A stretch of DNA of 64,000 bases from an uncultured Verrucomicrobiota bacterium (GCA_964497855.1 CAZCFM010000001.1:30618-94617); one strand, 5' to 3'; counted from the stretch's first letter, positions 1,966 through 40,009 are shown. A program made the numbers and translations. Notes: generated by a model from the sequence alone, not told the origin.

Positions 1966-3852
1966 TTAAAACCGGTTCACTTCCACGGACAGCATCCCCA
2001 GCCAGCGCTCGTCCGCGTCATCGGTCTGCAATCGTTGTGCGGACACACGAACCAGGGTTTCAAGATTTCGTTTCGATGTCAACGGATAGGATAGATCCGT
2101 GGACACGTTCCATTCGCAGGCGGCGTCGTTCCAGATCAGCCGGCTCCGCCATTGCAGGTAGCGGAACGAAAACAGACTTTCCGCCTGTAGTGGAACCGAA
2201 AAATCCCAGTCCGCCTCTTCGGATTCTTCTTTCGTAAACCCAAACTCCACTCCGGACCCCACAAACGCATAGTGTCGATGTTGCGATCGCGAAAAAAGAT
2301 TGCAGAGCAATGCGAGTCCTCCCAGGGTGCCCTGCCACTCCGGACCGATTTCGCGCTTGTGGAAATCCAGAACCTTCAGACCCAAGCCCCACCCCCGCAG
2401 CGACGAAAAACCCGCCTCCACCTCGCCCTGATTCTCCCGGAATTTACGCAGTTCCAACCCTGTGATTCGGGCTTCGCGAAGGTTATCCGCATCGCCGAGA
2501 AACGAATACCCGCCCAGTTCCACAAACCCGGCACGCTGCATGGCCACCCGCGAGCAGGAACCCATCTCCTGTTTCAACAACGCTCCTGAAAAGGAGGCCA
2601 TCCCCTGAACGTCCGTACCCGTACTCTTGTAAAGGGCAAATCCCGGCTGGAACGTGAACAGTCCCGTGTGGTCGCTTCCTTCCGCCACGCGCCGCGCCGC
2701 AGGGGATTCGATCAAAGCTTCTGACCAATTCACCGGGGGAAAGGGCTGGGTGGAATCTGACAAAAGTTCCCGCTGCAGGAGCCGAGCTTCGTGGGTCACA
2801 GGACTGGTGTAATCGCGGCAGAGTCGGTCTTTGGGATCAAAAACCATCTCCATTTCCTGGAGCAGCGACGCCAGGGCGTACACGTCCAGAGCGAGTGCTG
2901 GTTCGCTCAATGCGACGGCCTTGAATTTCAGAAGAGCCTCCGTGCGCCGCGTTTCCGATCCCGATACGAAGTCTTCAACGGCAGGCCAATCCAGCTCTGG
3001 AGTATTCTGGCGCAGCGAGGCGTAGCGGGTCCGGAACAGATCGCGGTACAAATATCCCCGGGCACGGAAACTGTGGAAAGCGGGGGCCTGCGGCTGGAGG
3101 ATGTCGTGCCGCAGCAGGAAAGCCACCAAACTGTGCGGCGGTGACACAACGGGACGAAAAGCCACGGTCTCCGCGTGCTGGAGGCCTTCACCGATGACCT
3201 GAACCAGCACCGACCCGCAGTTCTGATGGAAAAAATAGTAGGAGGGAAGCGGCGCCGTTTGCAGATGAATCAAATGATCCAGAAGAAGGTTCCGTTGCGG
3301 CTCGTCCAGATTCAAAGCGTAGCGAAGCAGGGAGCGATCCTGCTCCACGGTGTAGGTTTTCAGCGTGTAGTCCAGGGTTTGCACATCCATGACCACCGGG
3401 AAACCGCCTGTAAGGCCTTTCAGGGATTGCCACAGCGAGCGCCACGGGGATTCGGATTCGCGGGGTGCGGCCAGAACCAGATTGAGCCAGTTCCGTCCGC
3501 GACAACGCGGGATGTCAGGTTTAGAAACGGGAGAAGAAGGCTGGGGCACGGGATCGGTGGCCGCCAAAAACGAAACCACCAGATCCGGGGGTGGCGTTTG
3601 GCCGTCCGGTGCCCGGCGTCGAATGCGCAACAGCAGATGTCCGGCAATTTCCGCAATATCGCCCGTGCCAGGGGTGGCGTAGAGCAGTTCAAAACCTTCC
3701 ACACTGTCTCGATTCACCACGCCGATGTCCAAGGGCGCCCCCGTGCGGATGTCGAAAAAGCGCAGGTCCGCAGCATAGGATACGGCTTCGTCTCCCCTCG
3801 CCAGCATCAGCCAGAGGCCGCAGAAACACGCAAGTCGCCACCCGCAGCGCAT
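1966..3852 (-). CDS. DUF4105-like secreted/outer-membrane protein
   Basis: N-terminal signal-like segment (WRLACFCGLWLMLARG). GHLLLRIRRR and YYFFHQNCGSVL resemble the DUF4105 signature (GH..LR, NC.). C-terminal residue is Phe (..VEVNRF), as in many OM beta-barrels. Family assignment is from memory only. Confidence 0.55.
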   Translation of the reverse strand: MRCGWRLACFCGLWLMLARGDEAVSYAADLRFFDIRTGAPLDIGVVNRDSVEGFELLYATPGTGDIAEIAGHLLLRIRRRAPDGQTPPPDLVVSFLAATDPVPQPSSPVSKPDIPRCRGRNWLNLVLAAPRESESPWRSLWQSLKGLTGGFPVVMDVQTLDYTLKTYTVEQDRSLLRYALNLDEPQRNLLLDHLIHLQTAPLPSYYFFHQNCGSVLVQVIGEGLQHAETVAFRPVVSPPHSLVAFLLRHDILQPQAPAFHSFRARGYLYRDLFRTRYASLRQNTPELDWPAVEDFVSGSETRRTEALLKFKAVALSEPALALDVYALASLLQEMEMVFDPKDRLCRDYTSPVTHEARLLQRELLSDSTQPFPPVNWSEALIESPAARRVAEGSDHTGLFTFQPGFALYKSTGTDVQGMASFSGALLKQEMGSCSRVAMQRAGFVELGGYSFLGDADNLREARITGLELRKFRENQGEVEAGFSSLRGWGLGLKVLDFHKREIGPEWQGTLGGLALLCNLFSRSQHRHYAFVGSGVEFGFTKEESEEADWDFSVPLQAESLFSFRYLQWRSRLIWNDAACEWNVSTDLSYPLTSKRNLETLVRVSAQRLQTDDADERWLGMLSVEVNRF

Positions 3853-5021
3853 TACATGCCTGCCAACAGTTCCGGGATGACGCGGGCCATCATCTGCTCC
3901 AAGCCGGAACGGTCCACATCTGTGGGCACAGCGGCGATGACCGCGCGCGCGAGGCGCTGGGGTTCCACGGAAAGGGCGTTCGCAAAAAAGAATAACGTTT
4001 CACCGGAAAACGCATAGGACTGTTTGATCAGTTCGTCGGCCACATCGGGGTGCAGTCGCAGCGCGGCGGCGTCTTTCCAGACCAGGCGGGTGGTTTTGGC
4101 CAGCGTGGCATCAAGGGTCCCACTGACATGCAGCGTTCCCTGCATGGATTGATGGGCGGTTTGGGTTGTGAGGTCCCCGGTGGCTTTAACATACGCTGGC
4201 GTTGTTTCGCTGGTGCGGGCGGAGGTTTCGCCGCTCACTTCACTGATACGGCGGCAGACCTCGACACTGGGGCGGGTGGACTCTTCGTAGGTCGCGTCGC
4301 TGATGGGTGTGGTGAGTTCCGTGGATTGTTTGGAGGCGTTTCCGGTTGCCGCGGACAACCGGGTCGTCGCATTCAGGCTCGGATCCAGCGACTCGCGGGA
4401 GGTCGCTTCGCTCATCGGTGCCGTGAGTTCGGTCGATTGCCCGGTTGCGTTCGACGTGGAGTGGAGCGATTGTTCGCTGAACGTAGAGGTCACTTCCGAA
4501 AATCGGGAACTGGCCTCCAGGCTGGGTTCGAGGGATTGCTCCGTGGTCGCATCGGTCATGGGCGCGGTGAGATCCGTGGCCTGGGTGGTGGCCTCGCTGC
4601 TGCCCTCACTGCTTTGCTCTGTGACCTTGGATACCGTCTCCAGACTGGGTTCAATGGATTTCTCCGTGGTTGCCTGAGTGAGCGGAACCGTGCGCTCGGT
4701 GCTCTGACCGGTCGCGTGTGTGGTCGCGTCGCTGACGGGCGCGGTGACGTCAATCGAGCGCTCGGAACTGCGGTCACTGAAATCAAGCGTGGGCCGGGTC
4801 GAGTGTTCGTAGGATTTCCGGCTGACAGCGGCGGAATGATTCGCGGTGACCTCCGTCCCCTCGCTCAGTTGCTCCGCGGAAACTTTCACGCTTTTGCGGT
4901 AGGTGATATCCATGGAATGTGCGGTGGTCTGACCGGAAAAGGTAAATGGTCCCGCGAAAACAATGTGGGCACAGAGGCCCCCACAAAACAGGAAACAGTG
5001 GAAGCAGAATTGTGTGCGCAT
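3852..5021 (-). CDS. secreted Ser/Thr/Glu-rich tandem-repeat protein, unknown function
   Basis: Signal-like N-terminus (MRTQFCFHCFLFCGGLCAHIVFAG). At least 4-5 degenerate ~42-45 aa repeats with core STELTAPMS(D/E)AT..ESL(E/D)PSL. Non-repetitive C-terminal ~90 aa. Its stop TAA overlaps the ATG of the downstream DUF4105-like gene by 1 nt (ATGTAATG). Confidence 0.6.
   Translation of the reverse strand: MRTQFCFHCFLFCGGLCAHIVFAGPFTFSGQTTAHSMDITYRKSVKVSAEQLSEGTEVTANHSAAVSRKSYEHSTRPTLDFSDRSSERSIDVTAPVSDATTHATGQSTERTVPLTQATTEKSIEPSLETVSKVTEQSSEGSSEATTQATDLTAPMTDATTEQSLEPSLEASSRFSEVTSTFSEQSLHSTSNATGQSTELTAPMSEATSRESLDPSLNATTRLSAATGNASKQSTELTTPISDATYEESTRPSVEVCRRISEVSGETSARTSETTPAYVKATGDLTTQTAHQSMQGTLHVSGTLDATLAKTTRLVWKDAAALRLHPDVADELIKQSYAFSGETLFFFANALSVEPQRLARAVIAAVPTDVDRSGLEQMMARVIPELLAGM
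4206..4840 (-). repeat. in-frame degenerate tandem repeats (~130 nt period) inside the secreted repeat protein gene
   Basis: Seen at protein level: ATGQSTERTVPLTQATTEKSIEPSLE / ATDLTAPMTDATTEQSLEPSLE / ATGQSTELTAPMSEATSRESLDPSLN / STELTTPISDATYEESTRPSVE, plus YEHSTRPTLDFSDRSSE vs YEESTRPSVEVCRRISE. Boundaries are approximate. Confidence 0.6.
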
Positions 5022-12636: not shown

Positions 12637-12806
12637 GGTCGTTACGTTTTAGCCAAGAGCTTTGAAAATGTCAGCCCTTTTCCGGCTTTTGTTTGCAGGA
12701 TTGCAGGAGGGAGCTTCGCTCCGGCGTCAGGGTTCCCACACGGAGGCGGATTCGGGGGGCGGCCCGGCTTTTGGTTACCAATGTGGCGTTGTTTGGTCTT
12801 GGTCGT

Positions 12807-13991
12807 TCACAATCGATCCGTCAAATGAGATGGACCTGGGTCCCGGAACTGACGCAGGAGACGGGAGAAGGTGGGGGAACCGAGGGCCCCGGCAACGGCG
12901 GCGGACTCGCTCCAGGCGCTGCTCTCATCCGCAGGGATTCCGTCACCCCACAACACAACGGGAACCGGACCTTTTTCCGGGCGGCCCCGGTGGCGCAGGC
13001 CCGCAGCTACCAGCAGAAAGCGGCGGGGGGAACATTCCGCCAGCAGGGCGCGCAGCGGTCCCGTGATATAGTAGTCCACGGCATCCAGCCGACGAACCTT
13101 CTCCTCGGGAACGGCAAAACGGTCTGACGCAAAGGGTGCCGGAATCCAGACCACCAGTTCGTCGATTTCCGGCAGTAACCGCATCAGGGCCGCCACGTCG
13201 AAGCCCGCATCGGGTTGGTCCAACTGGAAAGGATCGTCGATTGGAAAAAAGGGCCGTCCGAGACACTGCGCAAAGCCGAGGGCAAGCCGTTCCGGGCCGG
13301 CGATGGCTTGACGGAAAGGCAGTGCCACTGGTGCCGGAGTCTCCGCGCCCCCGCTCCACAACCAGACGCCATGCACCGGGTTTTCCCCCAAGTCCAGCCG
13401 AACGGCATTGACCGGATGCGCCAGCAAAAGCGTTTCCGCTGTTTGCAGGAGACGACGGAAGGGCTCATCCTGCCGACGGAGGATCGCGAAAGGTTTCCAG
13501 CCCACTTTATCCTTCAGCGGGACAGGGAATTCCGGTGGAAGATCCAGCACGAAACGCCCCTGCCCCATTGAAACCATCTTCACGGCATCGCCACAGACAT
13601 CCGAAAAAGCCTTTTCCAAATCGCCAAACAAATGGCTCTCCTCCGCCTCAGTGGACAGTTGCACCGGCGCCTGCTCGCCTTCCGAGGTGTAGGTCACACA
13701 TTGCCCGAGCATCCGCACCCGGCGGGCCTCTGCCGAAAGTCCCAGCGCCACCGCTGCCATCGGCCCCCAGCGCAGACGAAGAGCCTCGCGGGACGGGAGG
13801 CCGCAAGCCTCCGCCAGCAGGGCGCGCGAGGCGTCGGCCTCCGCCCGGCTGCGGTGCAGCAGGCCGGTGCGGCCTTCCGTCGCCAGAGCCCGGGCGTGGA
13901 GAAGTCGTGCCGTATCCAAAGGCGTTTGTTCCCGCAACTCCGGATACGGGAAATCCGCCGCGCCATCCACGAGCAGGAGAATGCGTTTCAT
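12807..13991 (-). CDS. cofactor-independent phosphoglycerate mutase (ApgM)/'proposed homoserine kinase' family homolog, possibly catalytically degenerate
   Basis: N-terminus MKRILLLVDGAADFPYPELREQTPLDTA..LATEGRTGLL and internal NPVHGVWLWSGG match the ApgM/metalloenzyme family pattern. It lies directly upstream of hom on the same strand. Confidence 0.65.
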   Translation of the reverse strand: MKRILLLVDGAADFPYPELREQTPLDTARLLHARALATEGRTGLLHRSRAEADASRALLAEACGLPSREALRLRWGPMAAVALGLSAEARRVRMLGQCVTYTSEGEQAPVQLSTEAEESHLFGDLEKAFSDVCGDAVKMVSMGQGRFVLDLPPEFPVPLKDKVGWKPFAILRRQDEPFRRLLQTAETLLLAHPVNAVRLDLGENPVHGVWLWSGGAETPAPVALPFRQAIAGPERLALGFAQCLGRPFFPIDDPFQLDQPDAGFDVAALMRLLPEIDELVVWIPAPFASDRFAVPEEKVRRLDAVDYYITGPLRALLAECSPRRFLLVAAGLRHRGRPEKGPVPVVLWGDGIPADESSAWSESAAVAGALGSPTFSRLLRQFRDPGPSHLTDRL

Positions 13992-14003
13992 GAGGGAGGA
14001 GAC

Positions 14004-15305
14004 TCAGCCAAGTTCTTCCACCCGGTAGCGGACGATGTCACCGCCGACGTCTTCCATGGTGCGGAGCTTGTCCATCGCCGCGTGCATGTCGTCCATGCGC
14101 GCTTCGCCAGTCAGGATGACCACGGGCACAAATTCATGGGCCTGGTGTTCTTCTTTTTGCACCAAGGCCGTGATCGTGATGTTGTGTTCACCGAGCAAAC
14201 GGGCGACGTTGCCGAGAGATCCGGGACGGTCACGGAGGTTTAGGCGCAAATAGGAACGTGCGGTGCGTTCGCCGGGAGGGACCAAGCGCGGGGCCGGATC
14301 GGCGCGCCAGCTCAGGGGAATGCGTTCGGACGCGCCAATGGACAAATCGCGGGCCGCATCCAGCACATCGGCCACAACCGCGCTGGCGGTGGGCAATCGC
14401 CCGGCACCGCGGCCGTAATACAGCGTGTCTCCCACAATATCGCCCTTCACCAACACCGCGTTGAAACTCATGTCCACGCCTGCAAGCATGTGGTCTTCGG
14501 GAATCAGGGTGGGCTGAACACCGACTTCCAGTTTGCCGTCGAACTGCTCAAGAATGGCGAGCAGTTTGATGCGGTAGCCTAATTCTGCGGCATTTTTGAC
14601 GTCGATTGGGTCGATGCCGCGGATGCCGCGCACGGGAAAATCGCCCAGGCCCACGGGCACACCGAAGGCCAGCTGAGCGAGAATGACGGCTTTGTGGGCA
14701 GTATCCCATCCGTCGATATCCAGGCTGGGTTCCGCTTCGGCATAACCCAGGCGCTGCGCGTCTTTCAGCACGTCGTCGAAGGCTACCCCTTCTTTTTCCA
14801 TGCGCGTCAGAATGTAATTGCAGGTTCCATTCAGAATGCCGCAAATCTGGTTGAAGGAATTTGCCACCAGGCCTTCGCGAAGGGATTTGATAATGGGAAT
14901 CCCCCCCGCCACGCTGGCTTCAAAAAACAAATCCACGCCCGCGTCCGCCGCGGCCTCAATCAGTTCCGGACCATGTTCGGCCAACAGCGCCTTGTTTGCA
15001 GTCACCACCGATTTGCCCGCCGCAAGAGCGGCCAAAATCAGTTTCCGTGCCACGCCCGTCCCGCCGATGAGTTCGACCACAATGCGAATGTCGGGGTCGT
15101 TCAGGACCTCGTTTGCGTCGGTGCTGAGGATTTCTGTGGGGATGGGAAAACCGAAATCGCGTTTCAGATTGAGGTCCACCGCCTTTTTCAACACCAAATC
15201 AATGCCACTTCGCGCCGCGATCAATCCGCGCTGGCGGATGAGGGTTTCTGCCACGCCGGCGCCAACGGTGCCCAGGCCAAGAATGCCAACATGTACGGTC
15301 TGCAT
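14004..15305 (-). CDS. hom: homoserine dehydrogenase
   Basis: Rossmann N-terminus VGILGLGTVGAGV, a central catalytic domain and a C-terminal ACT domain (YLRLNLRDRPGSLGNVARLLGEHNITI). Start set at MQTVHVGILG (ATG 15303-15305); the 67-aa upstream extension has no homology-like character. Confidence 0.93.
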   Translation of the reverse strand: MQTVHVGILGLGTVGAGVAETLIRQRGLIAARSGIDLVLKKAVDLNLKRDFGFPIPTEILSTDANEVLNDPDIRIVVELIGGTGVARKLILAALAAGKSVVTANKALLAEHGPELIEAAADAGVDLFFEASVAGGIPIIKSLREGLVANSFNQICGILNGTCNYILTRMEKEGVAFDDVLKDAQRLGYAEAEPSLDIDGWDTAHKAVILAQLAFGVPVGLGDFPVRGIRGIDPIDVKNAAELGYRIKLLAILEQFDGKLEVGVQPTLIPEDHMLAGVDMSFNAVLVKGDIVGDTLYYGRGAGRLPTASAVVADVLDAARDLSIGASERIPLSWRADPAPRLVPPGERTARSYLRLNLRDRPGSLGNVARLLGEHNITITALVQKEEHQAHEFVPVVILTGEARMDDMHAAMDKLRTMEDVGGDIVRYRVEELG

Positions 15306-15447
15306 AAGAAAATCGGGGTGAAGGTTGCGAAGAAGGAAGCGCGGGATCAAAGCCTGAAACGGGGGAAATGGCAAGCGAAAACCCCTGAAAGCGAACACGC
15401 GGCAGGAGGGTGTCACCTCCAGCCGCGTGATGCGGTTGTGGACAAAC

Positions 15448-15999
15448 TTACTCGACGACTTCCACGCTGATGGACAGTTGGACATCGTTGCCCACAACCA
15501 GACCACCCGCCTCCATGGATTTGCTCCAGGTCAGGCCGAACTCCGTGCGGTCAATCACTCCCGTTGCATTCAGGCCGTAGCGGATTTTGCCCCAGGGATC
15601 TTTAACCGGGCCAAGGAATTCCATGTCGAGACTCACTTCCTTGGTCACATCGCGGATGGTCAGATTGCCCACCAATTTCCCGCCTTCGATTTTGGTGCTG
15701 ACGAAGGTGATGGTGGAAAACTTTTCGACATCAAAAAAATCGGGATTGCGCAGATGGTCGTCACGTTTTTGGTTTTTCGTGTCGATGCTTTTGACCTGGA
15801 TGACGGCTTTGGCCCCAGTCACCTTGCCATCTACAACGGTGAGACTTCCGTCAAACTCGCCAAAACTGCCTTTGGTGCGGCTAACCACCATGTGGGGCAC
15901 CGAAAACGTGACGGCGGAGTGGGCGGTGTCGAGGGGAAGTTCGTTGGCGCTCACGCCAAACGCGGAAAGGGTCATCACTGCAAACAGAATGTTTTTCAT
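15448..15999 (-). CDS. yceI: YceI family periplasmic polyisoprenoid-binding protein
   Basis: Signal peptide MKNILFAVMTLSAFGVSA, then a YceI-type pattern (DTAHSAVTFSVPHMVVSRTKGSFGEFDGSL...RDDHLRNPDFFDVEKF). GGGAGA RBS upstream of ATG 15999. Confidence 0.88.
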   Translation of the reverse strand: MKNILFAVMTLSAFGVSANELPLDTAHSAVTFSVPHMVVSRTKGSFGEFDGSLTVVDGKVTGAKAVIQVKSIDTKNQKRDDHLRNPDFFDVEKFSTITFVSTKIEGGKLVGNLTIRDVTKEVSLDMEFLGPVKDPWGKIRYGLNATGVIDRTEFGLTWSKSMEAGGLVVGNDVQLSISVEVVE

Positions 16000-16097
16000 A
16001 GAGTTCTCCCGAGGGTTAAGGAAACAGAGGCCGAATTGCCTATTTTTTTTAATCGAACAACTCAGCAACCCCTTACGCGACATTTTGGCTTTTCACA

Positions 16098-16108
16098 GAG
16101 TCAGACCC
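16098..16108. repeat. left copy of 11-bp direct repeat (putative target-site duplication) GAGTCAGACCC
   Basis: Identical 11-mer immediately abuts both ends of the inverted-repeat element. Removing the element plus one copy gives a continuous intergenic sequence. Confidence 0.75.
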
Positions 16109-16365
16109 GAATGGCACTAACTTAAGAGTTGTTTCAAGGCGAACAGCTCCAACGGAGCGTTGCATATCAGCCAGGGGTGCAACCCCTGGAAAGGGTGTCG
16201 GAACAAGGGTGTGTTCTGAAGGAACACCGCATTTGCGGCGTGTTATGCCGCGTTCCTTCAGAACGCCACTCTGTTTTCTTCATCAACCCGGGGCGTTGCC
16301 CCTGATATGCATAACCCCTTTGGGGTTTTCGATAGGTTCCAGAATCCCTTAAGTTAGTGCCATTC
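16109..16365. mobile_element. MITE-like non-autonomous element (257 bp, long imperfect palindrome, no coding capacity)
   Basis: Perfect 18-bp terminal inverted repeats: GAATGGCACTAACTTAAG at 16109-16126, and its reverse complement at 16348-16365. Internal nested inverted repeats (GCATATCAG...CTGATATGC; GTTCTGAAGGAAC...GTTCCTTCAGAAC). Flanked by an identical 11-bp direct repeat. Confidence 0.75.
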
Positions 16366-31597: not shown

Positions 31598-34330
31598 ATG
31601 AACGCAGTTGAAATCGAAGAGGCGGTATCCGCCCTGGCGGAGCTTCCCTTTGATGCGGAAACCTTTCCCTACGCGTTTTTGGAGGCGTTCGGGAACAAGA
31701 CCACCACCCTGAAGCGGCTGCAAAGCGGGACCAGCAATCAGTCGGACCTGCCGGGCGGGGTTTTGCAGCGCAACAACATCCACATCACGACGTGTGCGGC
31801 GGGCGAGGTAGCCACGACCCTGAACTCCCTGCGGGAAAGCCCCGCCACCGCTAAACAGAAGGCCAAGTTCATTCTGGCCACCGACGGCGAAAGCTTCGAG
31901 GCCGAGGATCTGGCCGGCGGCGAAACCGTGGCCTGCGCCTACAGGGATTTCCCCGACCACTTCGGTTTTTTTCTGCCCCTGGCCGGGATCAGCACCGTCA
32001 AACAGATCCGTGAAAACGCCTTCGACATCAAGGCCACCAGCCGCCTGAACCGCCTGTACCTGGAACTGATCAAAGACAATCCCGAGTGGGGAAAAGAGGC
32101 GCGGCGGCACGACATGAACCACTTCATGGCCCGCCTGATTTTCTGCTTTTTCGCGGAAGACACCGATATTTTTACCGGCGGCTGCCTCTTCACCGACACC
32201 GTGGAGCAGATGAGCGCGCGGGACGCCTCCAACACCCACGAGGTGATCTCGGAAATCTTCCGGTCCATGGCCACCGCCATCGGGGAGCGCAAAAGCGCTG
32301 GACTCCCCCGCTGGGCGGACGCCTTTCCCTACGTGAACGGCGGACTGTTCTCCGGGTCGTCCGAGGTGCCGCGCTTCAGTAAGTTTGCGAAAGCCCACCT
32401 TCGCCAGATCGGAACCCTCGACTGGACCAAAATCAACCCCGACATCTTCGGGTCCATGATTCAGGCCGTGGCCGACGACGAGGAGCGCGGGGCCCTGGGC
32501 ATGCACTACACCAGCGTGCCGAACATCCTCAAGGTGCTAAACCCCCTCTTTCTCGACGATTTGCGCGAAAAACTGGAGGAGGCGGGCGACAACAAGCGTA
32601 AACTCCTCAACCTCCGCAACCGCATGGCCCGCATCCGGGTCTTCGACCCCGCCTGCGGCTCCGGGAACTTTCTGGTCATCGCCTACAAGGAAATGCGGGC
32701 CATCGAGGCGGAGATCAACCGACGGCGCGGGGAAACCAACCGCCGCAGCGACCTGCCGCTCACCAACTACCGCGGCATCGAACTGCGCGATTTCTCGGCG
32801 GAGATCGCCCGACTCGCCCTCGTCATCGCCCAATACCAGTGCGACGTGCTTTACCTCGGCCAGAAAGAGGCCCTCGCCGTCTTTCTCCCCCTTGAAGCCA
32901 ACAACTGGATCACCTGCGGCAACGCCCTCCGCCTCGACTGGCTCAGCATCTGCCCCCCCACCGGCACCGGCGTCAAACTCCGCTCCGACGATCTCTTCGA
33001 CACCCCCCACGACCAGGCTGAAATCGACTTCCAAAACGAGGGAGGGGAGACCTATATCTGCGGGAATCCGCCTTTTATTGGCACGAGGAAACAAACCGAT
33101 GAACAAAAAAACGATTTAAAATCTGTATTTGCATCACTCACTGAGCACTGGAAAAATGTCGATTATGTAGGCGCTTGGCTCGTTAAAGCAGCTGAATATA
33201 ATAAAAATACATTTGCGCCATTTGCATTCGTTGCCACAAATAGTTTATGTCAAGGCCAGCAGGTTTCAATTACGTGGCGCATTCTCTTGAAAATGGGCTT
33301 TCGCATACGCTTTGCCCATACTTCCTTCATTTGGTCGAACTTAGCTGCAAACAAGGCGGGTGTGACCGTGGTTGTTATAGGTATAGACAACCGATGTACG
33401 GGAAACCGTATCATTTTCGATTCTGACAATATTCGGGTTGTTGAAAACATTAACCCTTATCTAACAGAGCACAAAGTTGACTACATACCTTCCAGTAGAA
33501 GACCCATTTTCATTAATGAATATATGGATTATGGTGTTTACTATTCAAAATCATCAGGGTTGATTTTACGACCAGACGAAGCATCTTCTTTAATAAGAAA
33601 CGGACTAGATAATTCATTAATAAAGAAATTTTTAGGCTCCTCGGAATTTATTAACGGAAAAGAACGATATTGCCTTTGGGTACAGGATACCGACCTTCAT
33701 CGAATTACCAAAATTCCAGAAGTCTTGGCCCGCATTGAATCAGTCAGGAAGGATCGACTAGATACCCGAGATAAATCCGTAAATAAACTCGCTTCAAAAC
33801 CCCACCAATTCCGTGAAATTAAGGGTGAAGAAAATGTAAAAATTCTAATTCCGATCGTTTCATCGGAAAACAGATCCCATCTGCCTGTCGGAATGGCTAA
33901 TGGCAGCGTAATTCCTACAAATAAGGCGTTTTTCATTGGAAATCCACCGTTATGGTGCCTCGCTATACTTTCTTCTCGCATCCACCTTACATGGATTGCC
34001 ACAGTCTGTGGACGAATGAGAACGGATTTCTCCTACTCCAACACCCTTGGCTGGAACACCTTTCCGGTGCCGTCGTTGACGGAGCAGAACAAGCGGGATT
34101 TGACGCGCTGTGCGGAGGAGATTCTGCTGGTGCGGGAGGCGCATTTTCCGGCGACCATCGCGGACCTGTACGACCCGGAGGCGATGCCCGACGATCTGCG
34201 GGCGGCGCACGAGCGCAACGACGAGACCCTGGAGCGCATCTACATCGGCCGCCGCTTCAAAAACGACACCGAGCGCCTCGAAAAGCTTTTTGAGATGTAC
34301 ACGAAGATGACGGGGGGAAAACATGTCTGA
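31598..34330 (+). CDS. MmeI/YeeA-family N6-adenine DNA methyltransferase (Type IIL-like architecture, N-terminal nuclease motif not recognisable)
   Basis: RLIFCFFAEDTDIF, FPYVNGGLF, INPDIFGSMIQAV, GMHYTSVPNILKVLNPLFLD, FDPACGSGNFLVIAY (SAM motif I), ICGNPPFIG (motif IV). C-terminal FPATIADLYDP..MPDDLRAAHERND resembles the MmeI C-terminal domain. Start at MNAVEIEE (ATG 31598). Confidence 0.88.
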   Translation: MNAVEIEEAVSALAELPFDAETFPYAFLEAFGNKTTTLKRLQSGTSNQSDLPGGVLQRNNIHITTCAAGEVATTLNSLRESPATAKQKAKFILATDGESFEAEDLAGGETVACAYRDFPDHFGFFLPLAGISTVKQIRENAFDIKATSRLNRLYLELIKDNPEWGKEARRHDMNHFMARLIFCFFAEDTDIFTGGCLFTDTVEQMSARDASNTHEVISEIFRSMATAIGERKSAGLPRWADAFPYVNGGLFSGSSEVPRFSKFAKAHLRQIGTLDWTKINPDIFGSMIQAVADDEERGALGMHYTSVPNILKVLNPLFLDDLREKLEEAGDNKRKLLNLRNRMARIRVFDPACGSGNFLVIAYKEMRAIEAEINRRRGETNRRSDLPLTNYRGIELRDFSAEIARLALVIAQYQCDVLYLGQKEALAVFLPLEANNWITCGNALRLDWLSICPPTGTGVKLRSDDLFDTPHDQAEIDFQNEGGETYICGNPPFIGTRKQTDEQKNDLKSVFASLTEHWKNVDYVGAWLVKAAEYNKNTFAPFAFVATNSLCQGQQVSITWRILLKMGFRIRFAHTSFIWSNLAANKAGVTVVVIGIDNRCTGNRIIFDSDNIRVVENINPYLTEHKVDYIPSSRRPIFINEYMDYGVYYSKSSGLILRPDEASSLIRNGLDNSLIKKFLGSSEFINGKERYCLWVQDTDLHRITKIPEVLARIESVRKDRLDTRDKSVNKLASKPHQFREIKGEENVKILIPIVSSENRSHLPVGMANGSVIPTNKAFFIGNPPLWCLAILSSRIHLTWIATVCGRMRTDFSYSNTLGWNTFPVPSLTEQNKRDLTRCAEEILLVREAHFPATIADLYDPEAMPDDLRAAHERNDETLERIYIGRRFKNDTERLEKLFEMYTKMTGGKHV
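33065..34030 (+). other. AT-rich mosaic segment inside the methyltransferase gene, covering the region after motif IV (presumed target-recognition domain)
   Basis: Composition switches abruptly just after the GNPPF codons (about 33060) to visibly AT-rich codons (aaa, att, aat, tta), and switches back near 34030 (..SYSNTLGWNTFPVP). The reading frame stays intact. Confidence 0.7.
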
Positions 34331-34503
34331 CGTGATTTTGTACACCACCGAGGATGGGAAGACACGCATCGACCTGCGTGTGGAGGGCGGGACCGTCTGG
34401 CTTCATCAGTTGGAGATTGCGGAGTTGTTCCAGACTTCCAAGCAAAACGTCAGTCTGCATGTTCGTAATATATTGAAAGATGGTGAGTTAGACGAATCGG
34501 CAA

Positions 34504-34524
34504 CTGTCAAGAAATCCTTGACAG
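34504..34524. repeat. palindrome CTGTCAAG-aaatc-CTTGACAG (copy 1 of a direct pair)
   Basis: 8-bp arms. Related copy 53 nt downstream. Located exactly where RhuM homology breaks off. Confidence 0.6.
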
Positions 34525-34558
34525 TTCAGATACCTCGCTTCCGAATGTTATCACCAGT

Positions 34559-34579
34559 TGTCAAGGAATCCTTGACAAC
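34559..34579. repeat. palindrome TTGTCAAGGA-a-TCCTTGACAA (copy 2)
   Basis: Perfect 10-bp arms around a single central base. Shares the TGTCAAG.AATCCTTGACA core with copy 1. Confidence 0.6.
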
Positions 34580-34633
34580 TCATCGCTCCAATTCCCGTTG
34601 GACTCGTTTGGAAATATATTGCAAGGATGCCGC

Positions 34634-36040
34634 ATGACTACCACTCAGCAAGTTGATGTATGGCTTCAAGTGAGAAAAGAGACCCGTACCCTTGAGTTTA
34701 AGGAGGCGAAAACGCAGTACGATTTCCGAAAACTCTGCAAGTATTGCGTGGCCATTGCGAATGAATCCGGAGGATTTTTGGTGCTGGGCGTGACCAACAA
34801 TCCTCCCCGGAAGGTGGTGGGCAGCGCGGCGTTCCAAAATACGGAGGAAACAGCTTCCAAACTGTTTCAGACACTTGGGTTCCGTGTTGACGTTGAGGAG
34901 GTGGATCATCCGGATGGACGGGTGGTGGTATTCCGGCTCCCGGGTCGCCCCCGGGGTACCGCCTATTCTTTTGAGGGCGCGTATTGGATGCGGGTAGGAG
35001 AGGAACTCCAGCCGATGTCGGAAGATCGGCTACGTGCTATTTTCACGGAAGGTCAGCCCGATTGGCTGTCGCTTCCGGCTGCTCCTCCGGTTTCCGCCCA
35101 GGAGGTTGTTCAGTTTTTGGATACTCAGAGTTTTTTTGATCTGCTGAAACTGCCGTATCCCGCCGATCAGCGGGGCGTGCTCGGACGGCTAGTGGAGGAG
35201 CGCTTGATTGCAGAGGCAACGGGTGGGTATGAGATCAGCAATTTGGCGGCAGTATTACTGGCAAAAGATTTAAATGCCTTTGAGGGCCTTTCCCGCAAAG
35301 CGTCACGGGTGGTGGTGTATCGTGGAGAGGACAAGCTCCACACCAAAACGGATAAGACAGGCGCCAAGGGATACGCGGTTGGATTCCAAGGCCTGGTGGA
35401 ATATGTGATGGGGATGCTTCCTCAGAATGAGGTGATCGAGAAGGCTCTGCGGGTGGAGAGTAAATTACTGCCGGAAGTGGTCATTCGCGAGCTTTTGGCC
35501 AATGCCCTGATTCATCAGGACTTCGAATGTGGCGGGGGATGCCCGATGGTGGAGATTTATTCAAACCGGGTGGAAATCAGCAATCCCGGCGAACCTATCG
35601 TGCCGGTGGAGCGGTTTATTGATGGCTATCAGTCGCGTAATGAGCGACTAGCGGATTTGATGCGTCGATTTGGGATTTGCGAGGAAAAAAGCAGCGGGAT
35701 CGACCAGGTAATTGGAGCGGCGGAAGCGCATCAGCTCCCGGCTCCGGATTTTCAGGTGGGATATCAACGGACGATTGTGATCTTGTATGGCCCACGTCCT
35801 TTCCGTCTCATGGACCGGAGTGACCGTATTCGCGCCTGCTATCAGCATTGCGCTCTGCAATGGGTACTTCGGCAACAGATGACGAATCAATCCCTTCGAG
35901 AACGATTCGGTGTGTCAGATAGCAGTACAAATTCTGTCTCACAGATTATCACCGCCACCATCGAGGCGGGTTTAATCAAACCCAACCCCAGCATAGCTCC
36001 CTCCCGAAAGTACGCCCGCTACCTGCCCATTTGGGCATGA
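34634..36040 (+). CDS. Schlafen/AlbA_2 domain plus HATPase_c_4 'putative DNA-binding ATPase/transcriptional regulator' (COG2865-like)
   Basis: N-terminal LEFKEAKTQYDFRKLCKYCVAIANESGGFLVLGV (AlbA_2/divergent AAA-4). Middle VIRELLANALIHQDF..GGCPMVEIYSNRVEISNPG (HATPase_c_4). C-terminal wHTH-like tail. Start MTTTQQ (ATG 34634). Confidence 0.8.
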   Translation: MTTTQQVDVWLQVRKETRTLEFKEAKTQYDFRKLCKYCVAIANESGGFLVLGVTNNPPRKVVGSAAFQNTEETASKLFQTLGFRVDVEEVDHPDGRVVVFRLPGRPRGTAYSFEGAYWMRVGEELQPMSEDRLRAIFTEGQPDWLSLPAAPPVSAQEVVQFLDTQSFFDLLKLPYPADQRGVLGRLVEERLIAEATGGYEISNLAAVLLAKDLNAFEGLSRKASRVVVYRGEDKLHTKTDKTGAKGYAVGFQGLVEYVMGMLPQNEVIEKALRVESKLLPEVVIRELLANALIHQDFECGGGCPMVEIYSNRVEISNPGEPIVPVERFIDGYQSRNERLADLMRRFGICEEKSSGIDQVIGAAEAHQLPAPDFQVGYQRTIVILYGPRPFRLMDRSDRIRACYQHCALQWVLRQQMTNQSLRERFGVSDSSTNSVSQIITATIEAGLIKPNPSIAPSRKYARYLPIWA

Positions 36041-36188
36041 ATCTTATTTCATCGCAACCGGCATTTCAGGGAAAGCAAAAACCTAACATCTTGCAAATGA
36101 ACACTTTCTTATTTTGTTTTCAACGGTACTTCCCGACGGGAGACCTGTCGGTTGACTCAATCCCGCCCCTGTGTAAAGAGAGCATTTT

Positions 36189-38246
36189 ATGACCCATTCC
36201 CTGAAAACATTTCCTTCTGTGTCGGTGACCTACGCGGGCGACGGCGGGTCGGTCCGCGCCAATGAGCTGGGGATGCGGCCGATGCAGGAGCGGGCGTATC
36301 AGAAGCGGGGGGAGCAATACCTGCTGATCAAGTCGCCGCCGGCTTCGGGGAAAAGCCGGGCACTGATGTTCATCGCTCTGGACAAGCTGGAGAATCAGGG
36401 TCTGAAAAAGGCCCTGATCGTGGTGCCGGAGAAGACCATCGGGGCCAGTTTTGCGGATGAACCGCTTTCGCGTTTCGGTTTCTGGGCGGATTGGAGGGTG
36501 GAACCGCGCTGGAATCTCTGCAACGCTCCCGGCGAAGATGGAGGCAAGGTGGAGTCGGTGCGGGTGTTTCTGGAGAGCGGGGATCGGGTGATGGTGTGCA
36601 CACACGCGACCTTCCGTTTCGCGGTGGACCGCTTCGGCGTGGGAGCCTTCGATGACTGTTTGATCGCGGTGGACGAGTTTCACCATGTGTCCTCGAATCC
36701 CGATAACAAGCTGGGAACGCACCTGGCGGAGTTTATTTCGCGCGGGAAAACCCATATCGTGGCGATGACGGGATCGTATTTCCGGGGCGACGCCGAGGCG
36801 GTGCTCCATCCCACGGACGAGGCCCGCTTTGAAACGGTGACCTACACCTACTATGAGCAGTTGAGCGGCTATGAGTATCTGAAACAACTGGACATGGGCT
36901 ATTACTTTTATGCGGGAAGCTATGCGGTTGAGATTCTGCAGGTGCTGAATCCGGAGGAGAAAACCATCGTCCACATCCCCAACGTCAACGCCCGCGAAAG
37001 CACCAAGGACAAAATCCGCGAGGTGGAGCACATTCTGGAGGAGCTGGGCGAGTGGCAGGGGGCGGATCCGGCGACCGGATTTCAGTTGGTGAAAACCCGC
37101 GAAGGCCGTCTTTTGAAAATCGCGGATCTTGTGGAGGATGATCCCCGCAAGCGGGACAAGGTGACGGCGGCGCTGAAAGATCCATCGCAGAAGAACAATC
37201 GCGACCATGTGGACATCATCATTGCCCTGGGCATGGCCAAGGAGGGCTTTGACTGGATCTGGTGCGAGCACGCGCTGACGGTCGGGTACCGTTCGAGTTT
37301 GACGGAGATTGTGCAGATCATCGGGCGGGCCACGCGGGACGCGCCGGGCAAAACGCGCTCCCGTTTCACCAATCTGATCGCCGAGCCGGACGCCGCCGAG
37401 GAGGCGGTCACCGAGGCGGTGAACGACACGCTGAAGGCGATTGCGGCCAGCCTGCTGATGGAACAGGTTCTGGCGCCGCGCTTTGAGTTCCGTCCCAAAC
37501 GACCGGAGACCGGGCCGAGTCCGGGATACGATTATGGTCCGGGAGGCTATCAGGCGGAGCGCTGCAATGTGGGTTATGATCCCGCATCCGGCAAAATTCA
37601 GTTGGAACTCAAGGGGCTGGCGGAACCGGCCAGTCCGGAAGCCTCCCGCATTTGCAGGGAGGATCTTACCGAGGTGGTGACGGCTTTTGTGCAGCAGAAA
37701 GGGAATCTGGAGCGGGGGCTCTTTGACGAGGAGCTGGTGCCGGAAGAGCTGACCCAGATTCGCATGGGGAAAATCATCAAAGAGAAATATCCCGAACTGA
37801 CACCCGAGGACCAGGAGGCGGTCAGGCAACACGCGGTGGTGGCGTTGAATGTGATCCAACAGGCGAAAGGGTTCCTGTTTCAGGACAGCAGCTCTCCGCC
37901 GGAGAAAGCGAACACCTCTCTGATTGACGGGGTGAGGCGATTCGCCATGGATGTCCGGGATCTGGACGTGGATTTGATCGACCGCATCAATCCTTTTGGC
38001 GAGGCCTACGCGATTTTAGCGAAATCCATGAACCCGGAGCGGCTGCGGCGTCTGCACGAAATCATCGGGGCCAAACGCGTGAGTCTTTCCTTGGAGGAGT
38101 CCCGGGACTTGGCCAAGCGCGCGTTGCGTTTCAAGCAGGAGCGGGGGCGAGTGCCGTCGATGACGGCGGCGGATCCATGGGAAAGGCGGATGGCGGAGGG
38201 TGTGGCTTATCTGCAACAGAAAGTCCGGGAGCAATCCAATGGCTAA
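36189..38246 (+). CDS. SF2 (DEAD/DEAH-like, ResIII-type) helicase
   Basis: Walker A IKSPPASGKSRAL, DEFH box IAVDEFHHV, MTGSYFRGD (motif III-like), ALGMAKEGFDW and QIIGRATRD (motif VI). About 250 aa C-terminal extension. Confidence 0.85.
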   Translation: MTHSLKTFPSVSVTYAGDGGSVRANELGMRPMQERAYQKRGEQYLLIKSPPASGKSRALMFIALDKLENQGLKKALIVVPEKTIGASFADEPLSRFGFWADWRVEPRWNLCNAPGEDGGKVESVRVFLESGDRVMVCTHATFRFAVDRFGVGAFDDCLIAVDEFHHVSSNPDNKLGTHLAEFISRGKTHIVAMTGSYFRGDAEAVLHPTDEARFETVTYTYYEQLSGYEYLKQLDMGYYFYAGSYAVEILQVLNPEEKTIVHIPNVNARESTKDKIREVEHILEELGEWQGADPATGFQLVKTREGRLLKIADLVEDDPRKRDKVTAALKDPSQKNNRDHVDIIIALGMAKEGFDWIWCEHALTVGYRSSLTEIVQIIGRATRDAPGKTRSRFTNLIAEPDAAEEAVTEAVNDTLKAIAASLLMEQVLAPRFEFRPKRPETGPSPGYDYGPGGYQAERCNVGYDPASGKIQLELKGLAEPASPEASRICREDLTEVVTAFVQQKGNLERGLFDEELVPEELTQIRMGKIIKEKYPELTPEDQEAVRQHAVVALNVIQQAKGFLFQDSSSPPEKANTSLIDGVRRFAMDVRDLDVDLIDRINPFGEAYAILAKSMNPERLRRLHEIIGAKRVSLSLEESRDLAKRALRFKQERGRVPSMTAADPWERRMAEGVAYLQQKVREQSNG

Positions 38247-39435
38247 GAAACAAATCACGGACGAAGATATCGACCTCTTGAATGAGCTGGAGGTGGACAC
38301 CGCACCGGATGCGAAGGATGCTGTTTCCGCGAGAGAACAGCGCATTCTTGCGGGCTTTGAGGAGATTGTGAACTTTGCCAAGGAGCACGGGCGTGTGCCA
38401 CAGCATGGGGAAGACCGGGATATTTTTGAACGGATCTATGCCGTGAGGCTGGATCGTATCCAGGCTTCGGGGGAGTGCCGGGAAATCCTGAAAGACAAAG
38501 ATATCCTTGGGCTGCTCTCGGAAAATCACGGAGGGGCAAGCCTGGTCAGGGAGGTCCCGGAAGAGGATGTGGCGATATTAGAGGCCTTGGGCGTGGAGAA
38601 AGCGCCGGGAAGCGATATTGCCCAATTGGCGTATGTGCGATCCCGCGAGGAAATCCAGTCGGCGGAAGAGGTTGCCCAAAGATTGCCCTGCAAGGATTTC
38701 GACCGGTTTCAACCCGTCTTCAAAATCGTTCAGACCGACCTGGACTGCGGAACACGGCAAACGGTGAAATATCAGGACAATGCGGAAGTGAAGGTCGGAG
38801 ATTTTTTCATTCTGGATGGACAGAAAGTGCTGGTGGCCGCGATGGGGGCACCCACGGTTTCCACCTATGGTCGTCCCAACCCCCGCTTGCGCGTTATTTA
38901 TGATAATGGGACTGAAAGTGATCTGCTGTTGCGCTCCCTGCAGAGGGCACTCAACAAAGACAAGGCCAGCAGAAGAATCGCCGAAGCTGGATACGGGCCA
39001 TTGTTTGCGGGTGAATCATCAGACGGAGACCTCGACGCGGGAACGATTTACGTTCTGCGCAGCCTTTCCAATCATCCTTTTATCCAGCAAAACCGGGACG
39101 TGATCCATAAAATCGGGGTCACGGGCGGGAGTGTCGAAAACCGAATCGCCCACGCGGAAAAGGATCCAACGTTTCTACTCGCGCCCGTGGAAGTTGTCGG
39201 ATCGTATAAACTGGCGAATCTCAACCGTTCCAAGCTGGAGAACCTTTTGCACAAATTCCTCTCCCCTGCCCGGCTCGACATGGAGCTGCAGGACCGTTTC
39301 GGTTTTGATGTGAAGCCCAGAGAGTGGTTTCTCGTTCCACTCCCGCTGATTGAGGAAACCGTCCAGCGCATCCTGGACGGAAGCCTCAGCAGGTGCCGCT
39401 ATGACCCAACGCTGGCACAATTGGTTCCACAATGA
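38239..39435 (+). CDS. T5orf172 / GIY-YIG-like nuclease domain protein
   Basis: C-terminal GTIYVLRSLSNHPF...VIHKIGVTGGSVENRIAHAEKD...LHKFL...REWFLVPLPLIEETVQRI is the T5orf172 (MUG113) pattern. The ATG overlaps the helicase stop by 8 nt (ATGGCTAA). Confidence 0.8.
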   Translation: MAKKQITDEDIDLLNELEVDTAPDAKDAVSAREQRILAGFEEIVNFAKEHGRVPQHGEDRDIFERIYAVRLDRIQASGECREILKDKDILGLLSENHGGASLVREVPEEDVAILEALGVEKAPGSDIAQLAYVRSREEIQSAEEVAQRLPCKDFDRFQPVFKIVQTDLDCGTRQTVKYQDNAEVKVGDFFILDGQKVLVAAMGAPTVSTYGRPNPRLRVIYDNGTESDLLLRSLQRALNKDKASRRIAEAGYGPLFAGESSDGDLDAGTIYVLRSLSNHPFIQQNRDVIHKIGVTGGSVENRIAHAEKDPTFLLAPVEVVGSYKLANLNRSKLENLLHKFLSPARLDMELQDRFGFDVKPREWFLVPLPLIEETVQRILDGSLSRCRYDPTLAQLVPQ

Positions 39436-39545
39436 GCGAAAACCCAGCGACCCAACCCACCTGGCGCATCCATGACTGCGGGCGATTGCCGAAGGGTGTT
39501 TGGGTGGTGCGTGAGCCTCAAAATCTTTCGCCGTGGGTGTCGGAC

Positions 39546-39749
39546 GGGGTTGAAACCCCCAGGTCCATGAATCGTCGCTACGCGACGCGAGGAAAAGACG
39601 GGCACGGGGTCCGTGGTTTGAAAACCACGGCTATTCGTGGGACTGTCGCTACGCGACAAACGGCATCCCCTCAGGGAGCCCGCATGGATTTGTGTGCCAT
39701 GGATGGCACACAAATCGAATAGCGTGCAACACATGGCCACAAATCGAAT
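39546..39749. repeat. cluster of hairpins and short direct repeats in a ~570-bp non-coding tract at the island's right edge
   Basis: GGGGT-tgaa-ACCCC (39546-39559). CCGTGGTT-tgaa-AACCACGG (39611-39630). GTCGCTACGCGAC twice (39574-39586, 39645-39657). 12-bp perfect stem GATTTGTGTGCC-atggat-GGCACACAAATC (39687-39716). CACAAATCGAAT twice (39709-39720, 39738-39749). Confidence 0.65.
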
Positions 39750-40009
39750 CGGACCCGGTTTTCGGAACGTTCAGCAGCCACCCAAACAGATCTTGATTCC
39801 GCAGGGATGCGAAGCAAATTTCATGCATGGTCGCGCCCTTTGAAACCGATGACGATGCTGTCGCGCTGGAGAAGCTGAATCAGCAGCTCCCGCAGATGAC
39901 GGAAGCCTACAACCCGCAGCCGATTCCGGACATTGGCGGTTTTACGCCGAACAGCCTGTTCCGCTTGGGGCTTCGCCACAGGCAGGAATATCTGTGTCAA
40001 AAGGAGTGC

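Follow-up and report, generated by a model that had tools for sequence, protein, structure and literature searches.

A YeeA/YeeB/YeeC-type methyltransferase, helicase and nuclease cassette with an exchanged recognition module in an uncultured Verrucomicrobiota bacterium

The window, i.e. the whole stretch of DNA that was analysed, comprises 64,000 nucleotides from an uncultured Verrucomicrobiota bacterium (GCA_964497855.1 CAZCFM010000001.1:30618-94617), and this text concerns the cassette at positions 31598-39435, in which an MmeI-like DNA methyltransferase, a superfamily 2 (SF2) helicase and a protein with a T5orf172 domain of the GIY-YIG superfamily are encoded. A first-pass annotation had described this region as a three-gene, yeeABC-like cassette that divides the functions of a restriction system among separate polypeptides. 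The yeeABC-like character is supported by the domains, the synteny and the literature; the gene count has to be corrected, since five open reading frames (ORFs) were called, all on the plus strand, and the 1.86-kb gap between the methyltransferase and helicase genes holds two extra ORFs, a RhuM-family remnant and an AlbA_2/HATPase_c_4 gene, that had been overlooked (Table 1). For the four ORFs other than the helicase, the starts agree with public gene calls.

Systems of this type have been known since 2009 and come with partial functional data, while their mechanism is unsolved; the earlier label 'uncharacterised' therefore stands with respect to mechanism and falls with respect to prior description (PMC2731913, PMC7261158, PMC9973331, 10.1101/2021.05.05.442762). 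Morgan et al. (2009, PMC2731913) delineated a second set of MmeI homologues that are devoid of the PD-ExK nuclease motif and 'invariably' adjoin a YeeB-like DEAD-type helicase and a YeeC-like GIY-YIG protein. Two members of this set, YeeA and MslORFHP, had no endonuclease activity, and the authors put forward a Type I-like model in which a single strand is modified and the altered N-domain provides the coupling to a helicase and a nuclease on separate chains. In B. subtilis YeeA is DnmA, which forms N6-methyladenine (m6A) at GACGAG, a short asymmetric sequence of which a single strand is modified (Nye et al. 2020, PMC7261158), and the synteny of the three genes across bacteria has been confirmed (Fernandez et al. 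2023, PMC9973331). For a Vibrio strain, Piel et al. (bioRxiv 10.1101/2021.05.05.442762) inactivated genes and found that 'only yeeAB mediated resistance' to one group of phages. A literature search (subscription-only papers lay outside it) yielded no later paper that names the system or solves its mechanism, and searches yielded no solved structure of the system and no defence-library model for the helicase or the nuclease.

Table 1. Features of the cassette and its DNA-level comparison with the related locus L083 (positions counted from the first nucleotide of the window)
Feature	Position	Strand	Details
YeeA/DnmA-like methyltransferase-specificity subunit	31598..34330	+	910 aa, ATG at 31598
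Degenerate MmeI_N domain	31598..32107	+	aa 1-170; MmeI_N E 3.6e-35
Exchanged variable module in methyltransferase gene	33118..33991	+	874 bp, ~aa 507-798, most of target recognition domain
RhuM-family passenger remnant	34323..34637	+	104 aa
AlbA_2/HATPase_c_4 passenger	34634..36040	+	468 aa
Conserved leader 5' of helicase	36121..36188	+	L083 DNA similarity resumes at 36121
YeeB-like SF2 helicase/ATPase	36189..38246	+	685 aa
YeeC-like T5orf172 (GIY-YIG superfamily) protein	38239..39435	+	398 aa
Window versus L083 DNA	31598-33117		92% identical
Window versus L083 DNA	33118-33991		no detectable similarity; protein identity 24-52%
Window versus L083 DNA	33992-34317		90% identical
Window versus L083 DNA	36121-39383		89% identical

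The gene trio and its protein components

The three core genes form a conserved unit. One genome per species was scanned with the T5orf172 protein, which confirmed 322 relatives and left a working set of 80 loci; gene order and strand were counted in the 48 loci with at least 3.5 kb of DNA 5' of the helicase. The order methyltransferase, helicase, nuclease on a single strand is present in 44 of these 48, so that the co-occurrence on which the first-pass annotation made its proposal depend is indeed found, and in most loci the helicase and nuclease genes adjoin or overlap. Genomes with the trio belong to the Verrucomicrobiota, Cyanobacteria, Planctomycetota, Alpha-, Beta-, Gamma- and Zetaproteobacteria, Chlorobi and Bacteroidota. 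Protein searches gave at least 8000 significant candidates each for the helicase and the nuclease, and an exhaustive search resolved the nuclease family into 509 clusters (50% identity, E <=1e-30). The YeeC-like nuclease was found in 233 plasmid records and in none from phages. An Acetobacter plasmid carries the trio side by side, and its record names the helicase 'restriction/modification system component YeeB'; the assignment of the window proteins to YeeB and YeeC rests on domain identity, on the published synteny (PMC9973331) and on such plasmid annotations. None of the three core ORFs of the window is truncated, and each can be aligned with its homologues over the whole length.

The methyltransferase carries the motifs FDPACGSGNFL, GNPPF and GVLQRNNIHITTC; the first and second, which are the S-adenosylmethionine (SAM) and catalytic motifs, had been recognised before, together with a length of 911 residues that is one too many. 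It is matched by all of the Pfam domains MmeI_N, MmeI_hel, MmeI_Mtase, MmeI_TRD and MmeI_C, i.e. it consists of an N-terminal domain, a helical spacer, a gamma-class N6-adenine methyltransferase, a target recognition domain (TRD) and C-terminal helices. Its best PADLOC model is REase_MTase_IIG (PDLC03598, 900 bits). Comparison with MmeI itself (PDB 5HR4; phmmer, E 1.8e-137) covers residues 88-906, with no alignment before residue 88, and pairs both the SAM motif FDPACGSGNFL and the catalytic NPPF; the protein is of the MmeI/gamma class, and motif I precedes motif IV in this alignment.

The N-terminal segment (aa 1-170), which has a mean identity of 69% across phyla, is homologous to the nuclease domain of MmeI and yet devoid of a PD-ExK active site. 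As a reference we used the N-terminus of MmeI, identical to the 5HR4 sequence, in which the PD-ExK residues are D70...E80-x-K82. When the window protein, 44 homologues from other genomes and MmeI are aligned with MAFFT, D70 of MmeI pairs with a conserved aspartate (D50), E80 with H62 and K82 with T64. The register is moved by one or two residues in hhalign (probability 97.4%), which puts I63 and T65 at the E and K positions. Neither register contains an acidic-x-Lys ([DE]xK) pair at the MmeI nuclease site, and the earlier claim that the acidic-acidic-lysine triad is missing is thereby upheld. What occupies the site, and spans the E80/K82-equivalent residues H62 and T64, is a family-wide motif, GGVLQRNNIHI, that is kept in the 44 homologues. 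Because the methyltransferase has no PD-ExK motif, the cutting must come from another component.

The YeeB-like helicase has the motifs SPPASGKS, DEFH and QIIGRATR. Its Walker A residues S53-G54-K55-S56, the DEFH box at 162-165, a TGS motif at 194-196 and QIIGRxTR at residues 376-383 are invariant in 37 helicase homologues; identity across phyla amounts to 76-78%, and a C-terminal extension of ~270 aa is conserved as well. Pfam recognises DEAD (3e-6) and ResIII (4.1e-5, a weak match of 24 bits) and finds no nuclease domain in the protein. The AlphaFold2 model of the helicase is poor, with a predicted local distance difference test score (pLDDT) of 63 that falls below 50 in the second RecA domain, and Foldseek returned generic SF2 matches with a template modelling (TM) score of ~0.2 (EcoR124I HsdR, Hel308/Pol theta, MDA5, RecQ, Cas3).

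The YeeC-like protein contains the motifs IYVLRS, KIGVTGGSVENR and REWF, and Pfam matches its residues 268-378 to T5orf172 (1.2e-10) and MUG113 (3.4e-12); Y271, K291, G293, R302 and E362 are invariant in 45 sequences. Its AlphaFold2 model (pLDDT 70.5) begins with a helical region, continues with a small beta-barrel and ends in an alpha/beta nuclease domain. The model had no match among PDB folds at E <=1e-3; the part around aa 175-250 bears a weak similarity to SH3/Tudor-like barrels (eIF5A, EF-P, the UvrD Tudor domain). Sequence searches of the PDB with the helicase and the YeeC-like protein gave nothing meaningful, PADLOC offered no meaningful model for either, and neither these two proteins nor the passengers matched an NCBIfam model. 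Between the helicase and nuclease genes there is an overlap of 8 nt (ATGGCTAA), which indicates that the YeeC-like protein is translationally coupled to the helicase. The first-pass annotation had named the same helicase motifs, overlap and T5orf172/GIY-YIG-like C-terminus, and on all of these it was right.

Exchange of the recognition module and the passenger slot

The methyltransferase gene is a mosaic. Its G+C fraction falls from ~0.62 to 0.36-0.42 between ~33050 and ~33950 and then recovers, and the segment encoding aa 485-785 has a third-position G+C (GC3) of 0.355, against 0.77-0.87 in the other four segments of the gene; the same segment has a mean protein identity to 47 homologues of 40%, against 69-79% for the other four. 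The boundaries of the variable module follow from a comparison with the locus L083 (assembly GCA_036681025.1), the helicase of which is 96% identical to that of the window. Since the module has no detectable similarity to its L083 counterpart and the sequence on both sides is 90-92% identical (Table 1), the recognition module has been exchanged by intragenic recombination, and a conserved frame with a swapped module is the pattern to be expected of a specificity subunit under diversifying selection. The outer flanks of the two loci are unrelated and the similarity begins exactly at the methyltransferase ATG, which implies that the system moved as a unit.

Across 47 loci the G+C of the module is on average 7.6 points, and at most 15.8 points, lower than that of the frame. 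The module of the window, at ~23 points below the rest of the gene, shows the largest drop seen, which suggests a recent import; more generally, there seems to be a circulating pool of recognition modules with a lower G+C. A search with the 301-aa segment returned no close donor, with 62-68% identity for the best relative; this negative is weak because the search also missed the window's own methyltransferase, which an exact look-up showed to be in the collection. The L083 locus holds, 3' of the system (12731-16121), a 115-aa ORF, a Y4jL_N protein, a PRiA4_ORF3/SEC-C protein and a MazE/Fic pair, so that the L083 copy is situated in a larger accessory island with toxin-antitoxin genes and with flanks unlike those of the window.

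The junction between the methyltransferase and helicase genes is a recurrent insertion slot for defence or toxin-antitoxin genes. The gap between the two genes could be measured in 50 loci: it is at most 41 bp in 14 of them, and holds 0.5-7 kb of extra genes in the other 36. A Pfam run on 64 gap ORFs returned RhuM as the commonest family (5), followed by the DUF1016/YhcG PD-(D/E)xK nuclease (4) and AlbA_2 with HATPase_c_4 (3 and 2), and further Uma2, an MNT/HepT pair, AAA_15, DarT with Macro, Prok-E2 with ThiF, CcdA, PIN, Fic, SocA and KilA-N. On a Moraxella osloensis plasmid the slot is occupied by RelB/YafQ and a DUF4433/macro pair, and in L083 (4666-9232; the gap of the relative L082 lies at 2153-4503) by an Eco57I-like methyltransferase of 957 aa and two ORFs of unknown nature. 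Operons for Type I restriction-modification also embed passenger genes.

In the window the slot holds two passengers. The 104-aa ORF, the start of which overlaps the methyltransferase stop (ATGTCTGA), matches the PADLOC candidate family PDC-S05 over aa 2-77 (E 5.5e-31), and its aa 1-69 are 65-70% identical to the same part of the full-length, 340-aa RhuM proteins in the slots of L063 and L070. After aa 69 it reads through into former intergenic sequence, and the C-terminal part of RhuM was not found at the window locus. The 468-aa passenger combines a Schlafen/AlbA_2 DNA-binding domain (SLFN_AlbA_2, 7.9e-14) with HATPase_c_4 (1.3e-18) and bears the public label 'ATP-dependent DNA helicase RecG'; relatives of its gene in the same slot are 71% (L040) and 38% (L051) identical. 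The AlbA_2 block (34583-36120) has L083-like sequence on either side. On its helicase side, the 89% identity to L083 restarts 68 nt before the helicase start, and this leader is possibly an internal promoter or ribosome-binding region; a scan of it for the sigma-70 consensus gave no promoter.

The slot also contains a 33-nt direct repeat (34496-34528 and 34550-34582), the copies of which are 79% identical, are spaced by 54 nt and each include the palindromic core TGTCAAGnAATCCTTGACA. The first copy is RhuM coding sequence, and the second is a duplicated fragment that also occurs 5' of the helicase in L083, L084 and L085. The repeat was considered as a recombination or operator site of the cassette and rejected as such, because the core is RhuM coding sequence (L033 and L070 have it within their RhuM genes, too) and the second copy a duplicated fragment; the repeat is probably a relic of a RhuM gene and not a functional site.

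Proposed mechanism, alternatives and related systems

We interpret the cassette, with a probability of about 0.6, as an intact three-component, ATP-dependent and methylation-gated restriction system of the YeeA(DnmA)/YeeB/YeeC type that resides with two passengers in a chromosomal accessory island; both the island context and the passengers are of the defence type. In the proposed mechanism, the TRD fused to the methyltransferase would set the recognition site, and SAM-dependent methylation of this short asymmetric site would mark the host DNA as self. On unmodified DNA the conserved, degenerate N-domain would recruit or activate a YeeB-YeeC complex, YeeB would drive translocation or looping of the DNA at the expense of ATP, and the T5orf172/GIY-YIG domain of YeeC would nick or cut it. 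Specificity would diversify through the swap of the ~0.9-kb module within the methyltransferase gene, and the methyltransferase-helicase junction would be the place where further genes of defence or toxin-antitoxin systems land.

Several observations weigh against this interpretation. In B. subtilis deletion of dnmA left plasmid uptake and growth unchanged (PMC7261158), single deletions of the genes of the locus left phage infection unchanged, upon which that copy was called a relic, and Bacillus phages show no depletion of the DnmA site (PMC9973331). For no member did the literature yield biochemical proof that DNA is cleaved or translocated or that a complex forms. The role of the N-domain as a docking or signalling domain for the helicase-nuclease is our conjecture. 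The helicase, as modelled, has an SF2 fold, and fold searches cannot separate a translocase on double-stranded DNA from an unwinding helicase.

The data on B. subtilis are also what a reading of the cassette as a decayed relic would start from, i.e. an orphan epigenetic methyltransferase next to a helicase and a nuclease that no longer restrict, as was concluded for that species (PMC9973331, PMC7261158). One of the window passengers is visibly degraded, which would fit. Stretches of the C-terminal domains are missing from B. subtilis YeeB and YeeC (PMC9973331), which are inactive in defence, whereas the window proteins are full length relative to a large cross-phylum group, with the family-invariant catalytic motifs all present. 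In addition, there is a second intact copy at another locus, with which the frame shares 89-92% of its DNA sequence, and the recognition module has been freshly exchanged; a near-identical frame around a fresh module argues for ongoing selection and mobility, and we consider decay of the window system improbable.

A different role for methylation is conceivable by analogy with BREX (bacteriophage exclusion) and DISARM (defence island system associated with restriction-modification), which likewise combine a related MmeI/PglX-like methyltransferase with helicase and nuclease functions and use methylation to mark self. In such a scheme methylation would do nothing else, and the helicase-nuclease would act on intermediates of phage replication or entry (DNA ends, single-stranded DNA, R-loops) instead of on unmodified sites. 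This would suit the fact that DnmA sites are not avoided in Bacillus phages, the response of DnmA to RNA-DNA hybrids (PMC9973331) and the restriction of only some phage subclades in Vibrio (10.1101/2021.05.05.442762), and the methyltransferase does show a partial match of its C-terminal half to DrmMI (110 bits) and weak matches to PglX. The latter amount to 22-24.5 bits (~24 bits) in the NCBIfam models, as opposed to cut-offs of 400-900. Moreover, DrmA, DrmB (DUF1998) and DrmC (phospholipase D, PLD) have no match in the other four cassette proteins, PglZ and BrxC are absent among the five island proteins according to PADLOC, and the neighbours are housekeeping genes, in line with the first-pass annotation, which had noted that BREX and DISARM partners are lacking; BrxL is lacking too, and there are only three core genes. 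The exchange of recognition modules fits this alternative and methylation-gated restriction equally. On balance a BREX- or DISARM-like mode of action appears unlikely to us.

By far the least probable explanation is that of a plain, single-chain Type IIG/IIL enzyme that happens to lie beside an unrelated helicase and nuclease. The top PADLOC model, at 900 bits, would lead one there, and so would the names of public fragments, which include 'type IIL restriction-modification enzyme MmeI'. The ExK residues are absent from the window protein and its 44 homologues, though, the neighbours are conserved partners in 44 of the 48 loci, and the published activity assays of YeeA and MslORFHP, which revealed no endonuclease (PMC2731913), point the same way.

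A comparison with known systems places the cassette closest to the trio of B. subtilis (DnmA-YeeB-YeeC) and to the set of Morgan et al., which includes MslORFHP of Moraxella osloensis and yeeAB of Vibrio crassostreae: the same gene trio is encoded on the same strand in an island or plasmid location. Hallmarks of that set are present in the window, namely homology to MmeI, an N-terminal ~100 aa free of PD-ExK, a DEAD helicase on the same strand and a T5orf172 protein right after it. What the window has over the B. subtilis trio is two passengers between methyltransferase and helicase and a recognition module unlike that of any close relative. Type IIL/IIG enzymes (MmeI, NmeAIII) have all five MmeI domains in common with the window methyltransferase, and the fused TRD is expected to give m6A on a lone strand of an asymmetric site; they possess PD-ExK, whereas the window methyltransferase does not and needs a separate helicase and GIY-YIG nuclease instead, presumably in an ATP-dependent manner.

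Type I (HsdM/HsdS/HsdR) and Type ISP systems (LlaGI, LlaBIII) likewise employ a gamma-class N6-adenine methyltransferase, an SF2 ATPase and a nuclease and, as in these systems, restriction by the window system probably requires the methyltransferase/specificity subunit. In Type I, specificity is provided by HsdS and the PD-(D/E)xK nuclease is fused to the motor; in the window the TRD is fused to the methyltransferase and the GIY-YIG nuclease is on a polypeptide of its own, and no HsdS or HsdR match in NCBIfam was found among the cassette proteins. Type ISP enzymes are single chains (Mrr-like nuclease, translocase, methyltransferase, TRD), as opposed to three separate ORFs with their own stops. 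Type III combines a beta-class Mod with a Res helicase that has a C-terminal PD-ExK nuclease; here the methyltransferase is of the MmeI/gamma class and no nuclease was found in the helicase. The separation from Types IIL, III, ISP and I that the first-pass annotation had drawn thus agrees with the domain and ORF tests.

We tentatively go one step further and propose that the YeeA/YeeB/YeeC systems may represent a distinct, fourth kind of ATP-dependent restriction-modification, in which a lone-strand, Type IIL-like methyltransferase/specificity subunit would license a separate SF2 motor and a GIY-YIG nuclease, with the N-domain repurposed as the coupling switch. Such systems may in addition be viewed as a modular platform, with a swappable recognition cassette and a dedicated slot by which defence and toxin-antitoxin genes would be spread across phyla.

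New in the present analysis are the cross-phylum synteny count, the mapping of the module exchange and the recurrent passenger slot. Among bacterial gene clusters linked to a methyltransferase, the trio is one of the more abundant; its methyltransferase will probably be called Type IIG by automated tools, a label that misdescribes a protein without the nuclease motif and hides the system. The window provides a clean, intact, high-GC example and forms a natural pair with L083, since the frames are ~90% identical at the DNA level and the modules and passengers differ; the pair is suited for mapping the determinants of specificity and for asking whether restriction follows the site of the methyltransferase. 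The passenger slot, which is filled in 36 of the 50 loci, may be another site at which new defence genes can be sought.

Island borders and minor sequence features

The cassette is flanked by housekeeping blocks, as had been noted before, with sdhA, sdhB and a polysaccharide deacetylase gene on the left and lolD-like and lolE-like genes and lysS on the right. No tRNA, integrase, Rfam match or flanking direct repeats were found at the island borders, and promoter and terminator scans of the locus stayed at background level.

The nuclease gene is separated from lolD by a non-coding stretch of 574 bp (39436-40009). It contains an inverted repeat of 14 bp without mismatches (39687-39700 / 39703-39716) as well as GTCGCTACGCGAC in two identical copies (at 39574 and 39645; chance expectation 0.05), and may harbour a terminator or a repeat element at the edge of the island. 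Finally, long antisense ORFs lie opposite the real genes, e.g. one of 579 aa on the minus strand (36120-37859) opposite the helicase; in DNA of ~60% G+C these are probably artefacts and not genes.

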